A stretch of DNA of 64,000 nt, taken from contig OZ219918.1 in assembly GCA_964291415.2 (NCBI GenBank), forward strand, positions 64,001 to 128,000. The letters are read 5' to 3'. This DNA comes from Alphaproteobacteria bacterium (lineage in GTDB: Bacteria > Pseudomonadota > Alphaproteobacteria > SP197). The position numbers and the translations under genes were made by a program. Positions 18,690 through 25,059 of the stretch are shown piece by piece (within the stretch, counting starts at the first letter, position 1; each line of letters begins with the position of its first letter). The notes beneath the pieces are model-generated. The model was not told the origin of the DNA, made no database searches, and saw only the letters and a list, made by a program, of their open reading frames with translations.

Positions 18690-19906
18690 GGCGGCGCCTC
18701 TTCTTCCAGGTCTATCTCACGTTTCTTTCGATCATCGTCCTCTTTGGCGTGCTGACCGCGCTGGCATGGTGGTTCATCCCCGATGAACACCGGGCGGGCG
18801 ATTTCACCCGGGGCATGGGGTCCTATCTCCAGGAGACGCTGCCGCCTGTCGGAGCGCCACGCCACCAAATCGACGCCCATCTCGCCCGCCTGGCGGAGCA
18901 CTTCGACGTCAACCTCGTCCTGCTGGCTCCCGACGGTGCCATCCTGGGGCGTTCCGGCTCCGGGGAGGAGAGGCGGCACCGCCGGCACGCCATCATGCTT
19001 TCCGACGGACGGACCATGGAGGTCGTCTGGTCGAAGGATGGTGTCTCCGGAGCCGGATTCATCGTCGTTCCCGGGCTTCTCGCGCTGGCTGCCGCCATCG
19101 GCGCCTGGCCCCTGTCGCGCCGCCTCGCCGGCCGTCTCGAGCGGCTGAAGTCCAGGGTCGAGGCCCTGGGTTCAGGGGACCTACAGGCGCGTGTCAAGGT
19201 CGAGGGCAGGGACGAGATCGCCGCCCTCGCGACGAGCTTCAACCACGCCGCCGGGCGTATCGAGGACCTTGTGGAGGCCCAGCGCAACACCCTGGCGGCA
19301 GCATCCCATGAACTGCGATCTCCGCTGGCGAGGATCGCCATGGCCACAGGATTGCTCGCCGACACAGCGGATCCACAACTGGTCGCCAGGATCGAGCGCG
19401 ACATTGCGGAGCTCGATCAGCTGATTGACCAAATCCTGCTCGGCAGCCGCCTCGAGATCGAGGAGGGACCGGCCCGTCTCGACGAGATCGATCTTGGCGC
19501 ACTCGCCGCCGAGGAGGCGGCACGCTTCGAGGTCGCGTTCACTGGCGGCACGGCCGTGATCGAGGCCGAGGAACACCTGGTCCGTCACCTCGTGCGCAAC
19601 CTTCTCGGCAATGCTCGGCGTCATGCCGCGGGAAGTCCAGTGAGCGTCGAAGTCGCGGCTGACGGACCAGGGGTGCGCCTTCGTGTCGCCGACAGGGGCC
19701 CCGGGGTGAGCGAATCCATGAGGGAGAGCATCTTCGAGCCGTTCCGCTCCTTCGCCGCTGATGGCACGGGTGCCGGTCTCGGTCTCTATCTGGTGCGGCG
19801 CATCGCGAGACGCTACGGTGGCGACGCAGTCTGCCTCGAGAGGCCAGGCGGTGGCGCGCTCTTCGACGTCAGCCTGCCTGCCAAGGAAGAGGAGCAGGGC
19901 CCATGA
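18686..19906 (+). CDS. HAMP-domain sensor histidine kinase
   Basis: Two TM segments, HAMP, SHELRSPL H-box, N-box NLLGNA, DRGPG, GAGLGL. Confidence 0.93.
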   Translation: MRRRLFFQVYLTFLSIIVLFGVLTALAWWFIPDEHRAGDFTRGMGSYLQETLPPVGAPRHQIDAHLARLAEHFDVNLVLLAPDGAILGRSGSGEERRHRRHAIMLSDGRTMEVVWSKDGVSGAGFIVVPGLLALAAAIGAWPLSRRLAGRLERLKSRVEALGSGDLQARVKVEGRDEIAALATSFNHAAGRIEDLVEAQRNTLAAASHELRSPLARIAMATGLLADTADPQLVARIERDIAELDQLIDQILLGSRLEIEEGPARLDEIDLGALAAEEAARFEVAFTGGTAVIEAEEHLVRHLVRNLLGNARRHAAGSPVSVEVAADGPGVRLRVADRGPGVSESMRESIFEPFRSFAADGTGAGLGLYLVRRIARRYGGDAVCLERPGGGALFDVSLPAKEEEQGP

Positions 19907-20533
19907 CAAGCACGCTCGATGCCGGCGGCTTTGACGTCTCTGCCGAGCACTCGACCACGCTGCCCTCGAGCTGGTACCGCGATCCCGCCATCTGGCGCCT
20001 CGAGCACGAGGCGATCTTCTACCGCAGCTGGTGGTATCTTGGACATGTCAGCGATCTCCCCCGACGCGGCGACTACCTCACCGGCAGGATTGCCGATCAG
20101 AATGTTCTCGTCATCAGGGGTCACGACGGGGTGTTGCGCGCCTTTCACAACGTGTGCAGCCACCGCGCTCATCCGCTGCTCGAGGGCTGCGGCAACACGG
20201 CCTTCATCACCTGCCCCTACCACCAGTGGACCTACGACGCGAACGGCCGCTTTCGCAACGGCCGGGGATGCGAGCCCCTGAGGGAGTGGACTGACGCGAA
20301 CGCCGACCTCAAGCCTGTGCGGCTCGAGGACTATGGCGGCTTTCTCTTCGTCAACCTCGATGCCGGTGCGATCCCCCTCATCGACCAGGCGGGGCGCTTT
20401 CTCGAGAACATGCGCCGCGCCTGTCCGCGGTTGCCGGACCTGGTGCGCGCCTGTCGCTGGGAAGTCGACGTGGCGGCGAACTGGAAGACGGTGATCGACA
20501 AGGGGATTACATACGTAACTTGACAGAATCGAC

Positions 20534-20562
20534 TTGACATCCAGTGGTGTTATCGGCATGAT
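20534..20562 (+). promoter_or_regulatory. Putative sigma70 promoter for tnpB
   Basis: TTGACA-17nt-CATGAT just inside the left TIR, about 40 nt upstream of ATG 20604. Confidence 0.55.
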
Positions 20563-21689
20563 TTCGCGAAGTAAATCAGTGTCCGCAACACCGGAGTCCC
20601 CGCATGTCGTCCTCTGTCACCTATCGACAGATCACCTTTCGCCTGCTGCCCGAGAAGCGCAGCACCTGGCGGCGGCTGGACGCCATGCTCGACGCGCAGC
20701 GCTGTCTCTACAACGCGGCGCTCGAGGAACGGATCGACTGCTACCGGAAGACCGGGAAGTCACTCACCTACTTCGATCAGGCAAAGTCCCTGACCTTGTG
20801 CCGGAAGGTTCTGCCGGACATGGCTGCGATGCCGGTGGCCATCCAGCGAGGGACGCTCAAGCGCCTCGATCATGCCTTCAAGGGGTTCTTCCAGCGGGTG
20901 AGCCAAGGTGGGGCCGGGTTCCCCCGGTTCCAGGGACGCCGGCATTTCAACAGCCTGTCCGTGGTCTCCGGCGTCAGGGTCGAGGGCAACCGTCTGCGCA
21001 TCCCCGGCCTGGGCTGGCTCACCATTCGCCGCCGGGGCGGCAATCCCTGGCCGCAGGGCACGCCGGTGAGCGCGGTTCTCAAGCGCGAGGAGGGACGCTG
21101 GAAGGCGGTGGTATGCCATGCGGTGTCTCTGCCGGAACCGGACGACAACGGCCATGCCGTCGGCGTGGACATGAATGCGGGCCAGGTGGCGACCTCGGAC
21201 GGGGAGATCCTGCGCCTGGAGAGGAGCCGGCGTCTTGAGGCCCGCGCCCGGCGCTATGCCAGGCAGCTGGCGCGGCAGCGCCGTGGCAGCAGACGCCGGG
21301 AGAAGACGCGGCGGCGTCTGTCGAAGACCACCCGGCGCATGGCGATGAAGCGCCATGACTGGCAGCACCATGTCAGCCGCCGCCTGGCGGATGCGGCCGG
21401 CACGGTGGTGGTCGAGGATCTGAAGGTCCGCAACATGACCCGCAGCGTCAGGGGCACGAAGGAGGAGCCGGGACGCCACGTGCGCTCCAAGGCGTCATCC
21501 TGGAGACGGGCTGGTCGTCGTTCCGGAGAATGCTGGACTACAAGGCGCGCCGCGTCATCGCGGTGAACCCGGCCTGGACCAGCCAGACCTGTGCAGCGTG
21601 CGGCGTCGCAAGCGCCCAATCACGCAGGACGCGGGATCTCTTTCAATGCGTGGCGTGCGGCCATGCGGATCATGCCGACCTTGTATGAC

Positions 21690-21989
21690 CGGGTTTCATT
21701 CCCGTGATCACGTCATCCACAGCGGTTGGGATTGGGAAAGTGTGGACAACTGCGGTTGTGTAGGAGCTGTCCGGTCTATGGTTTCAGAGAGATTCCGCTC
21801 CCCTGCGCGAGGGCGCACAGGGGAGCGGGGTGCGGAGATCTCACGATCCCCGCGGAGGTCGGTCGGAGCCGACCTGGCTTTGTAGAGCCGTCATTGAGCT
21901 TGGTCGGCCGGCCTCCCTTGACGTCCCTCGCGTCCTGAATGGATGCCTGGGCTTGGACCGTATCATCACAAGGCGAGGAGCAAGGGACG
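21690..21989 (+). ncRNA. Bridge RNA of the IS110 element (5' boundary approximate)
   Basis: Target loop closed by 21854-21865/21905-21916 with LTG GCCGACCT (21868-21875) and RTG CATTGAG (21892-21898); donor loop closed by CCTCGC/GCGAGG with LDG ATGGATGC (21939-21946) and RDG ACAAG (21968-21972). Confidence 0.8.
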
Positions 21990-22902
21990 ATGGTTAAGGT
22001 AGTGGCAGGGATCGATGTCGGCAAGGCCAGCCTGGACATCTGCGCGGCGGGCAGACGCGTCGTTTTGCCAACGACGCCACGAGCTGGCGGGCGCTGGGTG
22101 CGTGGCTTCGGGGTCTCGAGGTGAGCCGGGTGGTGATGGAGGCGACGGGCCGCTATCACCGCAGGGTTCACCAGTGTCTTCATGACCGGGGCTTCGAGGT
22201 CATCGTGATCAACCCGTTGCGGGCCCGGCGCTTCGCCGAGGTGATGGGCCATCTGGCCAAGACCGACCGCGTCGACGCGTTGATGCTGGCCAGGCTGGGG
22301 ACGGCGCTGGGCGACGATCTTGAGCCGGTGGCCCCTCAGGAGGCCTTCCTCAACCGCTTGGAGGATCTCCTGGTGGTGCGCGCCAGGCATGTCGATACGC
22401 GGACCATGCTGAGGCAGGTGGCGGGTGAGGTGGACGGCGAGGGCGAGACCCTCACACGGGCCACGATCGCCGATCTCGACGAAAGGATTGCCGCACTGGA
22501 TGCGGCGATCGAAGCGCTGATCGCCGGTGATCCCGAACAGGCCGAGCGGTACAGCATCCTGATCTCGATCCCCGGCGTCGGTCCGGTGACCGCCGCGGCC
22601 CTTCTTTGCTGGATGCCCGAACTCGGCAGTCTCGAGGGTCGCCAGGCGGCAGCGTTGATCGGGGTGGCGCCGGTTGCCGACGACAGCGGCCAGCACCACG
22701 GCGCCCGGCACATTCGCGGCGGGCGCCGCAGGCCACGCGATCTCCTGTTCATGGCCGCGACTTCGGCGTCACGCTACAATCAGGATCTCGCCATCGTGTT
22801 CCAACGCCTCAAGGCCGCCGGCAAGGCCCACAAGGTGGCGATCGTTGCCGTGATGCGCAAACTCATCGCGCTGGCGAACGTCCTGTTGCGGGAACAGCGC
22901 TG
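21990..22902 (+). pseudogene. IS110 recombinase/transposase; 1-nt frameshift near 22055, 3' end disrupted
   Basis: GIDVGK in one frame, then RRFAND...VVMEATG, KTDRVDA, SIPGVG, DDSG, GGR, AVMRKL in another. Confidence 0.88.
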
Positions 22903-22948
22903 CCGCCTGAAGCACCGGCACGCTCACCGGCGTGAAGGAGACTCCCTC

Positions 22949-23245
22949 ATGGCCCTCACGCCTGCAGAGAAGCAGCGCCGTTATCGGGAACGGCTCAAGG
23001 CCGGCATGTCTCCCGTGCGCACCCGCAAGCTCCGTGACCGACGCTCGCGGGCCCAACGCTGGTGCGATGCGGTGGCCGAACTCGGCGCACTGCAGGAGCA
23101 CTATCGGGACTGTCTCGACAGGCTCCCGGACTCGCTGCACGACACAGCCTATGGAGAGCGCCTGCAGATCATCGTCGAGGCCGACATCGAGGCCCTCGAG
23201 GAGATCGAGCCTCCGCGCGGCTACGGACGGACACATGACACATGA
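22949..23245 (+). CDS. Small hypothetical mobile-element-associated protein (basic TPAEKQRRYRER N-terminus)
   Basis: GAAGGAG RBS, 98 aa; in frame with the truncated IS110 gene but unrelated to it. Confidence 0.6.
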   Translation: MALTPAEKQRRYRERLKAGMSPVRTRKLRDRRSRAQRWCDAVAELGALQEHYRDCLDRLPDSLHDTAYGERLQIIVEADIEALEEIEPPRGYGRTHDT

Positions 23246-23488
23246 CACCTGGAGCCCCATTGTGCGCGGTAACGTTCTGACTGTGGTCACAATGCCCGGC
23301 ACCCTCATGCCGGGTAACGTTACCGCAATCAATGGCGAACACCCCACTCATGCTGCCGGGCGAACTCAACGTCTCCCTGGCCACGGGGCGTAGACACCGC
23401 AATGTCGGAACGTCAGACCGCATGGGGACAGACCAGGGAAACATCTTCACGCACGCTCACAAAAACCTTGCACCGAAACATGGATGCT

Positions 23489-23640
23489 CAATGCAGCGGC
23501 GAACATTCTGGCCTCGGGGACTGGGGCATCTGCGCGGGGAGGTTGCCGGGTTGCCGGGCCTGTGAACCGCGAAATCGATCGGAGGATGGCAGCATGACGC
23601 TGTCAACTTCTCGATATAAGTCCCATCGACAACAATCACG
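23489..23640 (+). ncRNA. Putative TnpB omega-RNA (scaffold overlapping the tnpB 3' end and right TIR; guide from the flank)
   Basis: Hairpin GCCTC-GGGGACT-GGGGC (23511-23527) whose loop GGGACT is complementary to the terminal AGTCCC (23619-23624); CGCGG/CCGCG stem; boundaries inferred. Confidence 0.6.
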
Positions 23641-24150
23641 AGTGCTACCACTGCGATGTCAATCACCGCTCGCTGATGGAACTCGTCGACTATGACGGCC
23701 AGGCCGCATGGTCCGATGACGGCATCACCTTCAGCCACAGGATCACCGCCAGGGATCTCGACAACACGGCCTATCGCCTCGAAGCGGCGGACGTTGAACA
23801 GCCCGAAGCCCTCTTCGGCTATATCTGGCCCACCGCAATCCCCCTCATGTACCCGGGCAGCCCCCATCTGGCGATGTTCCAGGTTCTGCCCACCGGCCCC
23901 GAAACCACCCGCGAGAGATGGGACTTCTACTTCACGTCCCGCGAGCCCTCCGAACTCGAGAGGCGGTTCATGGACTACATCCGCACCGTCCTCGTGGTCG
24001 AGGATGTCCGGCTCTGCGAGAACGTCCAGCAGGGTCTCCACTCGCTCGGCTACCACCAGGGACGGTTCGTCGTCGACAGGGATCACCCCGAATTCAGTGA
24101 GCACCACGTGCACTTCTTCCAGTCCATGGTGCGCGACTCGCTGAAGTCCG

Positions 24151-25059
24151 TCACGGCGTGACCGGAACGAGGCGCCCCAGGACAAGTCCGGCAAAGACCA
24201 GGAGGCCAATCCGGTTGTTGGCGGAAAAGGCCCTGTGGCAGGAGGCCGGGTCATCGAGATCGACGGTGACGAGCTGCCTTGCCAGATCGGCGGCGGCGAC
24301 GGCGAGGACCACCAGGAAGGGCCACCCGGTCCCTGTCAGGTAACCGGCCAGGGCTGCCCCGGCAACGAAGACGCCGTAGAAGAGACCGGTGAGGGGTTTC
24401 GAGCTCTCGCCGAAGGCAAGGGCCGTCGACTTCACGCCGACCCGCTCGTCATCCGTCTTGTCCTGGTGGGCATAGATCGTGTCGTAACCGATCGTCCATG
24501 CGATGGCGGCGAGGTAAAGCACCAGGGGTTCCGGTGAGAGCGCGCCCCTGACCGCGACCCAGCCCACCAGGGCCCCCCAGCTGAAGGCGAGGCCGAGAAA
24601 GAGCTGCGGCCAGTAGGTGACGCGTTTCATGAAGGGATAGATGACCACCAGGCCAAGGGAGGCGAGCCCAGTGATGATCGCTGCCTGGTTGAGCTGGAGA
24701 AGCACGATCAATCCTGCGGCAAGCAGCAGGCCAAGGAAGACCAGGGCGCCTGGCAGCGTCACGGCGCCACTGGCGAGGGGACGGTCGCGGGTCCGCTCAA
24801 CCCGGGCGTCGATCCGCCGGTCGACGATGTCGTTGACGATGCAGCCGGCGGACCGCATCACCACGGCTCCGGCGGCGAAGAGGCCAAGGAGCGTCCAGTC
24901 CGGCCATCCAGGCGAAGCCAGGGCAACCGCCCACCAGCAGGGCCACATCAGGAGCCAGAAGCCAGCGGGCCTGTCGACGCGCGCCAGTTGCAGCCACGGT
25001 CGCCACTCGACGGGCGCCCGTGCGTTGACCCACTCCCTGAAGAACGGACGCCGGCTCAT
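24151..25059 (-). CDS. ubiA: 4-hydroxybenzoate octaprenyltransferase
   Basis: RVDRPAG, NDIVDRRID..VERT..RPLASG, YDTIYAHQD. Confidence 0.95.
   Translation of the reverse strand: MSRRPFFREWVNARAPVEWRPWLQLARVDRPAGFWLLMWPCWWAVALASPGWPDWTLLGLFAAGAVVMRSAGCIVNDIVDRRIDARVERTRDRPLASGAVTLPGALVFLGLLLAAGLIVLLQLNQAAIITGLASLGLVVIYPFMKRVTYWPQLFLGLAFSWGALVGWVAVRGALSPEPLVLYLAAIAWTIGYDTIYAHQDKTDDERVGVKSTALAFGESSKPLTGLFYGVFVAGAALAGYLTGTGWPFLVVLAVAAADLARQLVTVDLDDPASCHRAFSANNRIGLLVFAGLVLGRLVPVTP

Follow-up and report, generated by a model that had tools for sequence, protein, structure and literature searches.

How does an insertion sequence (IS) of the IS110 family come to lie within the codons for the C-terminal A-D-L-N-A motif of a tnpB gene, and does this position reflect a lineage that has specialised on tnpB? 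The question is raised by an element found on a stretch of 64,000 nucleotides from an alphaproteobacterium (assembly GCA_964291415.2, contig OZ219918.1, positions 64,001 to 128,000 of the forward strand), which as a whole is referred to here as the window. We consider it likely that this is a genuine IS110-family (IS110-group) element, probably intact, and that its tnpB target is one outcome of drift and reprogramming of its guide. It is a known kind of IS110 bridge-RNA element whose natural target is apparently unreported, and the main product of the analysis is a family series of reprogrammed guides, not an evolved 'attack' on TnpB.

Junctions, bridge RNA and the match between guide and target

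The left junction of the element reads ...CATGCCGACCT|TGTATGACC and the right junction ...ATGGATGCT|CAATGCAGC, with a copy of the dinucleotide CT at 21680-81 and a second copy at 23487-88. Both junctions share this core, and neither terminal inverted repeats nor a longer target duplication are present. Scripted excision of 21682-23488 yields ...CVACGHADHADLNAAANILASG... and restores the TnpB reading frame (...HADLNAAANIL), which bears out, at exact coordinates, the claim of a preliminary description of the window that removal of the element brings back A-D-L-N-A. The target comprises 13 bp, GCCGAC-CT-CAATG (site sequence GCCGACCTCAATG), in the A-D-L-N-A codons of a multicopy tnpB. Across relatives of the element the termini are near-invariant (right ...ATGGATGCT, left T(G/A)TATGAC...), and the flanks vary from copy to copy.

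The non-coding left end is predicted to encode the bridge RNA. When 21 left ends are aligned, the scaffold proves to be conserved and varies freely only in two short segments, which flank a small hairpin, GGCTTTGTAGAGCC, on its 5' and 3' sides. In the window copy these segments are GCCGACCT and CATTGAG (in the target loop RNA, 5'-strand GCCGACCU and 3'-strand CAUUGAG), the two strings that the preliminary description had matched to all 13 bp of the target. The consensus fold (RNAalifold, 12 sequences) predicts a structured upstream RNA of two hairpins and two stem-closed loops and places both guides in one internal loop, which is closed by an 8-bp stem. Compensatory changes were found in 6 of the 60 predicted pairs, and in the closing stem the pairs 78/143, 82/139 and 83/138 are changed on both sides with pairing kept. 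A fold of the single left-end sequence, in which the minimum-energy structure pairs the left guide with an upstream GGTCGG, was set aside for the consensus fold. The second loop contains ATGGATGC (21939-46), which equals the last bases of the right end, and TCATCACAAG (21963-72), an imperfect reverse complement of CT plus TGTATGA of the left end with one extra base; these matches to the joined ends were read by eye, without statistical control. A comparison of 20400-23700 with Rfam (E of at most 1) gave no match to an omega-RNA or a bridge RNA, there being no family of either kind for comparison, and a snoRNA match of 17.7 bits (cut-off 50) was judged to be due to chance.

The reading of the two segments as guides rests on their covariation with the flanks across relatives, not on the window copy alone. 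We compared 25 related loci from alphaproteobacterial metagenome-assembled genomes (MAGs); both ends were mapped in 22 copies including that of the window. The guide table holds 20 copies (the window copy and 19 relatives, with 12 distinct guide pairs), at about 69-87% DNA identity to the window copy; it excludes L025, with a left end unaligned from base 1, L027, with a target-loop region that is not alignable, and L002-L004, L011, L012, L022 and L028, which have no left end. Scored over the 11 non-core guide positions, the 20 copies match their own flanks at a mean of 8.45 positions, with at least 9 in 9 of the 20, as opposed to a mean of 3.58 and a maximum of 7 for the flanks of copies with another guide (338 pairs). 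The window copy scores 11 of 11. This confirms that the match between guide and target exceeds chance: the strands of the first loop are complementary to the target around the core, and in the relatives they covary with the flanks.

In the window copy the match is contiguous, with 8+7 bases that share the CT and thus cover 13 distinct bp. Other contiguous matches, likewise including the core, were found for L006 and L016 (7+8 each), L023 (7+7) and L014, L015 and L018 (6+7). One-sided or weaker matches occur among L029, L020, L024, L026, L009 and L021 (for example 9+2 in L029, 7+3 in L020 and 0+4 in L024). The one-sided matches could stem from off-target insertion or from later recombination between copies, and the available text of a recent preprint (10.64898/2026.08.14.744561) describes 'half-matches' as common at IS110 boundaries.

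The recombinase gene assigns the element to the IS110 family. Its product has a DEDD (RuvC-like) domain at the N-terminus and, at the C-terminus, a Tnp domain with Ser (Pfam DEDD_Tnp_IS110, PF01548, 1.2e-19; Transposase_20, PF02371, 1.1e-16), and the recombinase of a relative (L008) reaches 206.8 bits with NF033542, 'IS110 family RNA-guided transposase' (cut-off 140). Alignment with the IS621 structure 8wt6 (5.8e-29) shows the motifs GID, EATG, KTDxxDA and SIPGxG to be conserved, and all of them are found in the window translation as well; the assignment of catalytic residues in the recombinase is presumptive. Intact recombinases of the relatives measure 315-332 aa. The gene in the window had been given an end at 22902 and in fact runs to about 22935.

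Just downstream of the recombinase gene, and inside the IS, lies a small conserved open reading frame (ORF), orf2, with the protein sequence MALTPAEKQRRYRER...GYGRDT. It forms a separate ORF in L002, L006, L007, L008, L010, L013 and L019 and has neither a Pfam nor an NCBIfam match; for L023, L024 and L026, which are shorter (1340-1447 bp), the alignment covers this region only partially. The textbook IS110 layout does not include passenger or accessory genes.

The flanks of the element belong to a TnpB protein, with Pfam matches to OrfB_IS605 (PF01385, 2.8e-14) and Cas12f1-like_TNB (PF07282, 3.1e-13), and an intact paralogue (L041) reaches 209.1 bits with NF040570 (cut-off 100). Pfam, NF040570 and structure alignments together reveal a RuvC domain that is split and holds a zinc-ribbon insertion, and a motif D-x-N-A-A-x-N-I at the C-terminus. 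In the intact paralogue, alignment places the D of HADLNAA at position 361 of a TnpB-like chain of 408 aa and at D401 of the Cas12f structure 7wju, in agreement with the earlier naming of this residue as the third of the RuvC site. Owing to the insertion in the A-D-L-N-A codons the interrupted frame now reads D-L-V-stop and ends two codons past the aligned D, whereby the N-A-A-x-N-I helix and about 35 last residues of TnpB are lost. Judged from the sequence, nuclease function of TnpB is likely to be lost at this copy. The insertion site and the right end of the tnpB element are 137 bp apart; in studied TnpB elements such as ISDra2 the omega-RNA scaffold is encoded at the 3' terminus.

By analogy with IS621, the element would excise as a circle that joins ...ATGGATG-CT-TGTATGA..., and the recombinase would bind the bridge RNA, with pairing between its donor loop and the joined ends and between its target loop and GCCGAC-CT-CAATG. 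In this process the left guide would pair with the bottom strand and the right guide with the top strand at the site, and strand exchange at CT would insert the circular form without duplication. The choice of tnpB is read here as one outcome of ordinary guide drift and reprogramming in the clade and not of an evolved anti-TnpB function, and the insertion may persist because it is harmless to the host. No sigma-70-like promoter site was detected in the integrated left end, and the IS has the same orientation as tnpB, so that read-through from tnpB could, as a matter of speculation, supply the bridge RNA transcript. At the circle junction, computed by joining 23465-23488 to 21682-21700, a candidate promoter (TTGCAC from the right end, 17 nt, TATGAC from the left end) matches the consensus at only 7 of 12 positions by manual count and was not relied on; the relatives have TTGCCA in place of TTGCAC.

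Insertion sites of the relatives and the question of specialisation

The targets of the relatives were named by means of frames ranked by GC content at third codon positions (GC3) together with Pfam; the longest ORF across a junction was rejected as unreliable in DNA of high GC content. Host genes form the flanks or neighbourhoods of several copies, with MTTB (L005), TauD (L007), Zincin_1 (L008), GMC_oxred_C (L016) and SRAP (L017), a position between ECH and SoxG (L019) and an alpha/beta hydrolase (L029). Other copies lie at mobile elements: at an IS5-type DUF4096/DDE_Tnp_1 gene (L014, whose flanks are shared by L015, L018 and L022), beside a DUF772 transposase gene (L020), between genes for a group II reverse transcriptase (RT; RVT_1) and for DDE_Tnp_1_4 (L006), and at a distance of 114 nt from a transposase gene of the Mutator family (Transposase_mut; L023). 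No Pfam family was found for 5 of 20 flank pieces (L010, L013, L023 left, L024 and L029 right), the flanks of L021, L026 and L009 are outside the Pfam set, and the labels 'IS3 orfA-like' (L010), 'ISAs1-like' (L024/L026) and 'SRAP' (L009) were given by eye only. These mixed flanks show frequent natural retargeting in the clade, in which landing in other mobile elements is common and not the rule.

One MAG holds seven copies of the element (L013-L018 and L022). The six bodies that were compared are 99.6-99.9% identical, and this near-identity may be taken as a sign of recent activity. Four of the seven (L014, L015, L018 and L022) are located at the same codon, GKKI|KGRKR, of the IS5-type transposase gene, which shows that the use of another IS as a landing pad does occur in the clade; the remaining copies are found in a GMC oxidoreductase gene, in an SRAP gene and at an unnamed site. 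For L014, L015 and L018 the IS bodies are 99.7-99.8% identical, the left flanks 98.5-99.8% and the right flanks 62-76%, and these copies may stem either from independent insertions at IS5-type hosts or from composite movement of IS5 and IS110 elements.

The tnpB site and the IS5-type site together raise the thought that this clade of IS110 elements in alphaproteobacteria (sponge-associated, by the labels of sequencing runs) repeatedly retargets its bridge RNA to conserved coding stretches of resident mobile elements. The RuvC-III codons of tnpB and GKKI|KGRKR would both be examples of such multicopy safe harbours, and one RNA-guided element would parasitise and disable another. We regard this generalisation as tentative and rather doubtful.

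The preliminary description had gone further in one direction and proposed a sublineage specialised on the D-x-N-A codons of multicopy tnpB, which would offer a mobile, host-neutral landing pad for spread from copy to copy while the nuclease is disabled. With one insertion only, such a specialisation is not supported, and we consider it unlikely. The perfect guide match (13 of 13) and the shared IS5-type codon of four near-identical copies in one relative's genome would be in keeping with it, and so would the distribution of the exact 13-mer in the host genome (4.44 Mb, 5 contigs), where, in the count that had been suggested as a check, all five further sites lie in paralogous tnpB copies (4 full-length, 1 remnant) and none outside. 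All five are empty, however, so that only one of the six sites in the host genome is occupied. Across 33 genomes of the order the exact 13-mer occurs 27 times, as compared with 2 occurrences of a reversed control, and 12 of the 27 are in this tnpB family, five in the host genome and seven in five other genomes of the genus. The latter would again suit a specialised lineage, but the other 15 are outside tnpB and make up 15 of the 22 exact sites in the related genomes.

A search for further copies argues in the same direction. The same-guide pattern was found in the window only among the 33 genomes of the order (0 copies in the 32 others) and in none of the metagenome contigs, and the right junction between the IS end and the N-A-A codons is likewise restricted to the window among these 33 genomes. 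An extra match to the right junction in a sample of 401 genomes of the class is inside an unrelated gene, and a single one in the metagenome contigs is in unrelated DNA of low GC content; both were judged to be chance matches. The left-end motif identified 28 copies of the IS family in 8 of the 33 genomes, all in one genus, and by junction search 1 of the 28 left-end-bearing copies lies in this tnpB motif. Mapping of the homologues' insertions, the other check that had been suggested, placed sister sublineages in host genes and mobile elements alike and not mainly in tnpB. The idea that the insertion represents an evolved attack on TnpB fares no better and is not supported; the loss of TnpB reads as a by-product, and there is no sign of selection for disabling it.

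In the host genome the IS family is represented by one full copy, one truncated copy and one solo right end. The truncated copy (L002, G000:C1:121838-123053; 90% identity) is 5'-truncated against a group II intron RT gene and is itself followed by a different IS110-family gene. The solo right end (L003, G000:C4:639587-639741) comprises 153 bp with 95% identity, and its flank, CT|CAAGG, is not tnpB and agrees with 6 of the 7 bases of the right target in the window.

Assembly errors or decay, and the nested locus

In the assembled window a C is missing after 22051, so that the recombinase frame is shifted, and TGGT is missing after 22903, whereby the stop is gone and orf2 is joined to the recombinase. 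Also absent are CCGTT after 21867, part of the scaffold and kept in 19 of 19 aligned relatives with a target loop, and small pieces at 23276, 23292 and 23360 in the right end, which appear as three insertions in public contigs. The gaps at C, TGGT and CCGTT relative to the relatives, together with 13 nt that are missing from the interrupted tnpB after 21491, could portray the element as a dead relic, namely a decayed, non-autonomous remnant in a tnpB that was itself broken by a 13-nt deletion, with the guide match as the fossil of an old event. We think this improbable in view of a comparison with Logan contigs of four public runs from 4 studies (X1, X2, X3 and X6), in which uncovered parts are uninformative. 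The missing letters are present there, CCGTT in X2 and X6, the C in X1, X2 and X3, and TGGT in all four, and long contig pieces are free of substitutions (X1 record 5, 1336 nt; X2 record 8, 291 nt; 0 other letters in each). Differences that consist of deletions only, with no substitutions, resemble consensus errors in a repeat and not decay. In addition, the window's adjoining long ORFs are unbroken.

The breaks in the window are thus probably consensus errors made by the assembly in a repeated element. As the missing letters are present in otherwise identical contigs, the natural element is probably intact, and the recombinase frameshift noted in the preliminary description was not seen in the public contigs. 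A version with an intact recombinase frame, the scaffold and this left target guide exists in public data (X2; X6 is one base off). X1 is possibly the source sample, so that the four runs are not all independent. The right junction between IS and tnpB is bridged by X1 record 6 with 66 letters; X3 record 22 reaches 26 letters past this junction, which is below the bar of 31, and was therefore not counted as bridging. For the left junction there is no bridging piece among the contig pieces listed. The 13-nt gap in the interrupted tnpB was defined against four paralogues and may likewise be an assembly error. As the gaps suggest consensus errors of the deletion type in the repeated elements of this assembly, frameshifts in its IS copies should not be taken for pseudogenes without reads, and the absence from other public contigs of frameshifts that make a copy look dead calls for general caution.

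Some further observations were made on these runs. Skips of 1807 bp in X1, X2 and X3 were rejected as evidence of excision, as the contigs carry other letters and probably represent uninterrupted tnpB paralogues. A contig of low depth (5.41) in X6 has T for C at 21874, where the left target guide pairs with the core, and also A in place of G at 21911; U at 21874 would still wobble-pair with the G of the bottom strand. Runs that contain at least one third of the words of the stretch are labelled as sponge or coral-reef metagenomes or as coded organisms, and these labels hint at a symbiont of marine invertebrates as the host bacterium.

That the guide did not evolve for tnpB at all, the 13-mer being simply A-D-L-N written in codons that a high-GC genome favours and tnpB one of several equal matches, is a quite improbable explanation, for which the excess of exact sites over the reversed control, the 15 sites outside tnpB and the tolerance of relatives for 1-4 mismatches and one-sided matches (as in L029 and L020, and in the 'half-matches' of the available preprint text) might speak, while none of the five further exact sites in the host genome is outside tnpB and the sole mapped insertion of this guide is in tnpB.

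The interpretation we prefer, that of a genuine and probably intact IS110-group element which reached tnpB by guide drift and reprogramming, has several points weighing against it. In the assembly the recombinase is broken and the scaffold has a gap of 5 nt, and if these breaks are real the copy is dead. Bridging of the right junction by at least 31 letters was found in one run only, X1, which may be the source sample. No circular form, RNA or activity was observed, and the contigs of the public runs show no back-joint, rare forms being invisible in contigs. The location in tnpB of all five further exact sites in the host genome is a pattern that would be expected of a specialised lineage as well. 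As to the effect on TnpB, the aligned position 361 and D401 of 7wju are presumed, beyond what the alignment itself shows, to be the third acidic, catalytic residue of RuvC, and the overlap of the insertion site with the omega-RNA region is likewise presumed by analogy with ISDra2.

The element is part of a triple nesting at 19903-24161, in which the IS110 element lies in a tnpB-only element and the latter in a gene for the alpha subunit of a Rieske-type oxygenase (Table 1). Pfam places the Rieske domain at 19903-20523 and the Ring_hydroxyl_A domain at 23676-24161. The ends of the tnpB element (about 20503 and about 23625) were taken from an alignment of 5 genomic copies, and the tnpB paralogues in this genome are 92-96% identical.

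Table 1. Features of the nested locus, with positions in the window
Feature	Position	Strand	Remarks
Rieske-type oxygenase alpha-subunit gene, 5' part	19903..20502	+	Pfam Rieske 1.5e-21; interrupted by the tnpB element
tnpB-only IS200/IS605-type element, left part	20503..21681	+	tnpB ORF from 20604; last letters GCC GAC CT (A-D-L...)
CT core copy, left junction	21680..21681	+	Of 22 copies mapped at both ends, 20 have CT 5' of the element; exceptions L024, L025
IS110-family element	21682-23488 (1807 bp)	+	CT at both borders
Non-coding left end, predicted to encode the bridge RNA	21682..21989	+	308 nt; scaffold conserved in relatives
Target-loop closing stem, 5' strand	21854..21861	+	Predicted to pair with 21909-21916 (RNAalifold columns 77-84 with 137-144)
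Left target guide GCCGACCT	21868..21875	+	Equals left target plus CT core; scaffold CCGTT just 5' missing in this assembly
Distal hairpin GGCTTTGTAGAGCC	21876..21889	+	Between the target guides; paired in the consensus fold (columns 103-118); conserved in relatives
Right target guide CATTGAG	21892..21898	+	Reverse complement of CT + CAATG
Putative donor-binding loop	21939..21972	+	Second stem-closed loop; contains ATGGATGC and TCATCACAAG
IS110-family DEDD recombinase gene	21990..22935	+	Broken in the assembly: C missing after 22051, TGGT missing after 22903
orf2	22949..23245	+	Conserved small ORF, about 96-103 aa; fused to the recombinase frame in this assembly
IS110 element right end	23246..23488	+	Ends ...ATGGATG-CT; terminus conserved in relatives
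tnpB element, right part	23489..23625	+	CAATGCAGCGGCGAACATT... (N-A-A-A-N-I-L...); tnpB stop, right end
Rieske-type oxygenase gene, 3' part	23626..24161	+	Pfam Ring_hydroxyl_A 2.2e-15

Comparison with known systems

An IS110 target in tnpB was not encountered in the literature searched, including the available text of PMC11208160 and PMC11187229; this search did not extend to supplementary target tables, and that of PMC11208160 may list tnpB. TnpB goes unmentioned in the available text of the 2026 preprint (10.64898/2026.08.14.744561). The locus suggests that one RNA-guided mobile element can insert into another and inactivate it. Additional independent insertions in tnpB, if found, would point to a specialisation of one mobile element on another by way of a coding motif. 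The family is also a clear instance, in nature, of the bridge-RNA code, and the 12 guide pairs of the related elements constitute a natural data set for the rules of reprogramming, for mismatch tolerance and for one-sided matches.

The nearest known system is IS621 of E. coli. As far as the available text of PMC11208160 goes, the 5' loop strand of its bridge RNA forms 8-9 nt of pairing with the bottom strand, and the 3' strand 4-7 nt with the top strand, with the core included in both, and the right donor guide pairs discontiguously. The element in the window has the same layout, as the preliminary description had proposed when it invoked the bridge-RNA geometry of IS110/IS621 around a CT core. 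Judged against that text, the two elements have in common a recombinase with DEDD and Tnp domains, a bridge RNA upstream of the recombinase gene and a CT core, a first loop with the left target guide on its 5' strand and the right one on its 3' strand, the core being part of both, and a second loop that corresponds to the joined ends and has a discontiguous right donor guide, and no duplication beyond the core. In contrast to IS621, to which its protein is only distantly similar, the element described here has a longer left end (308 nt) with two extra 5' hairpins, a right target guide that matches over 7 nt instead of the 4 nt given in the same text for wild-type IS621, and the additional conserved orf2; its target is a coding motif of tnpB, whereas IS621 is described there as targeting repetitive extragenic palindromic (REP) sequences.

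A likeness also exists to elements of the IS1111 group, which are IS of the DEDD family as well and have a sequence-specific target, specified by RNA, in another mobile element, that is, a multicopy, host-neutral site. Elements of that group have a seekRNA downstream of tnp as well as inverted repeats in subterminal position, and they insert at non-coding ends or at recombination sites; the element in the window differs in that it belongs to the IS110 group and in that its target is inside a coding active-site motif. Finally, the pairs of closely related elements ISEc11/ISXne4 and ISEc21/ISMch6, as presented in the available text of PMC11187229, resemble the present family in that the RNA scaffold is kept while the target segments are swapped and the flanks differ. 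The family described here differs from these pairs by forming a larger series, with 12 guide pairs among 20 copies.

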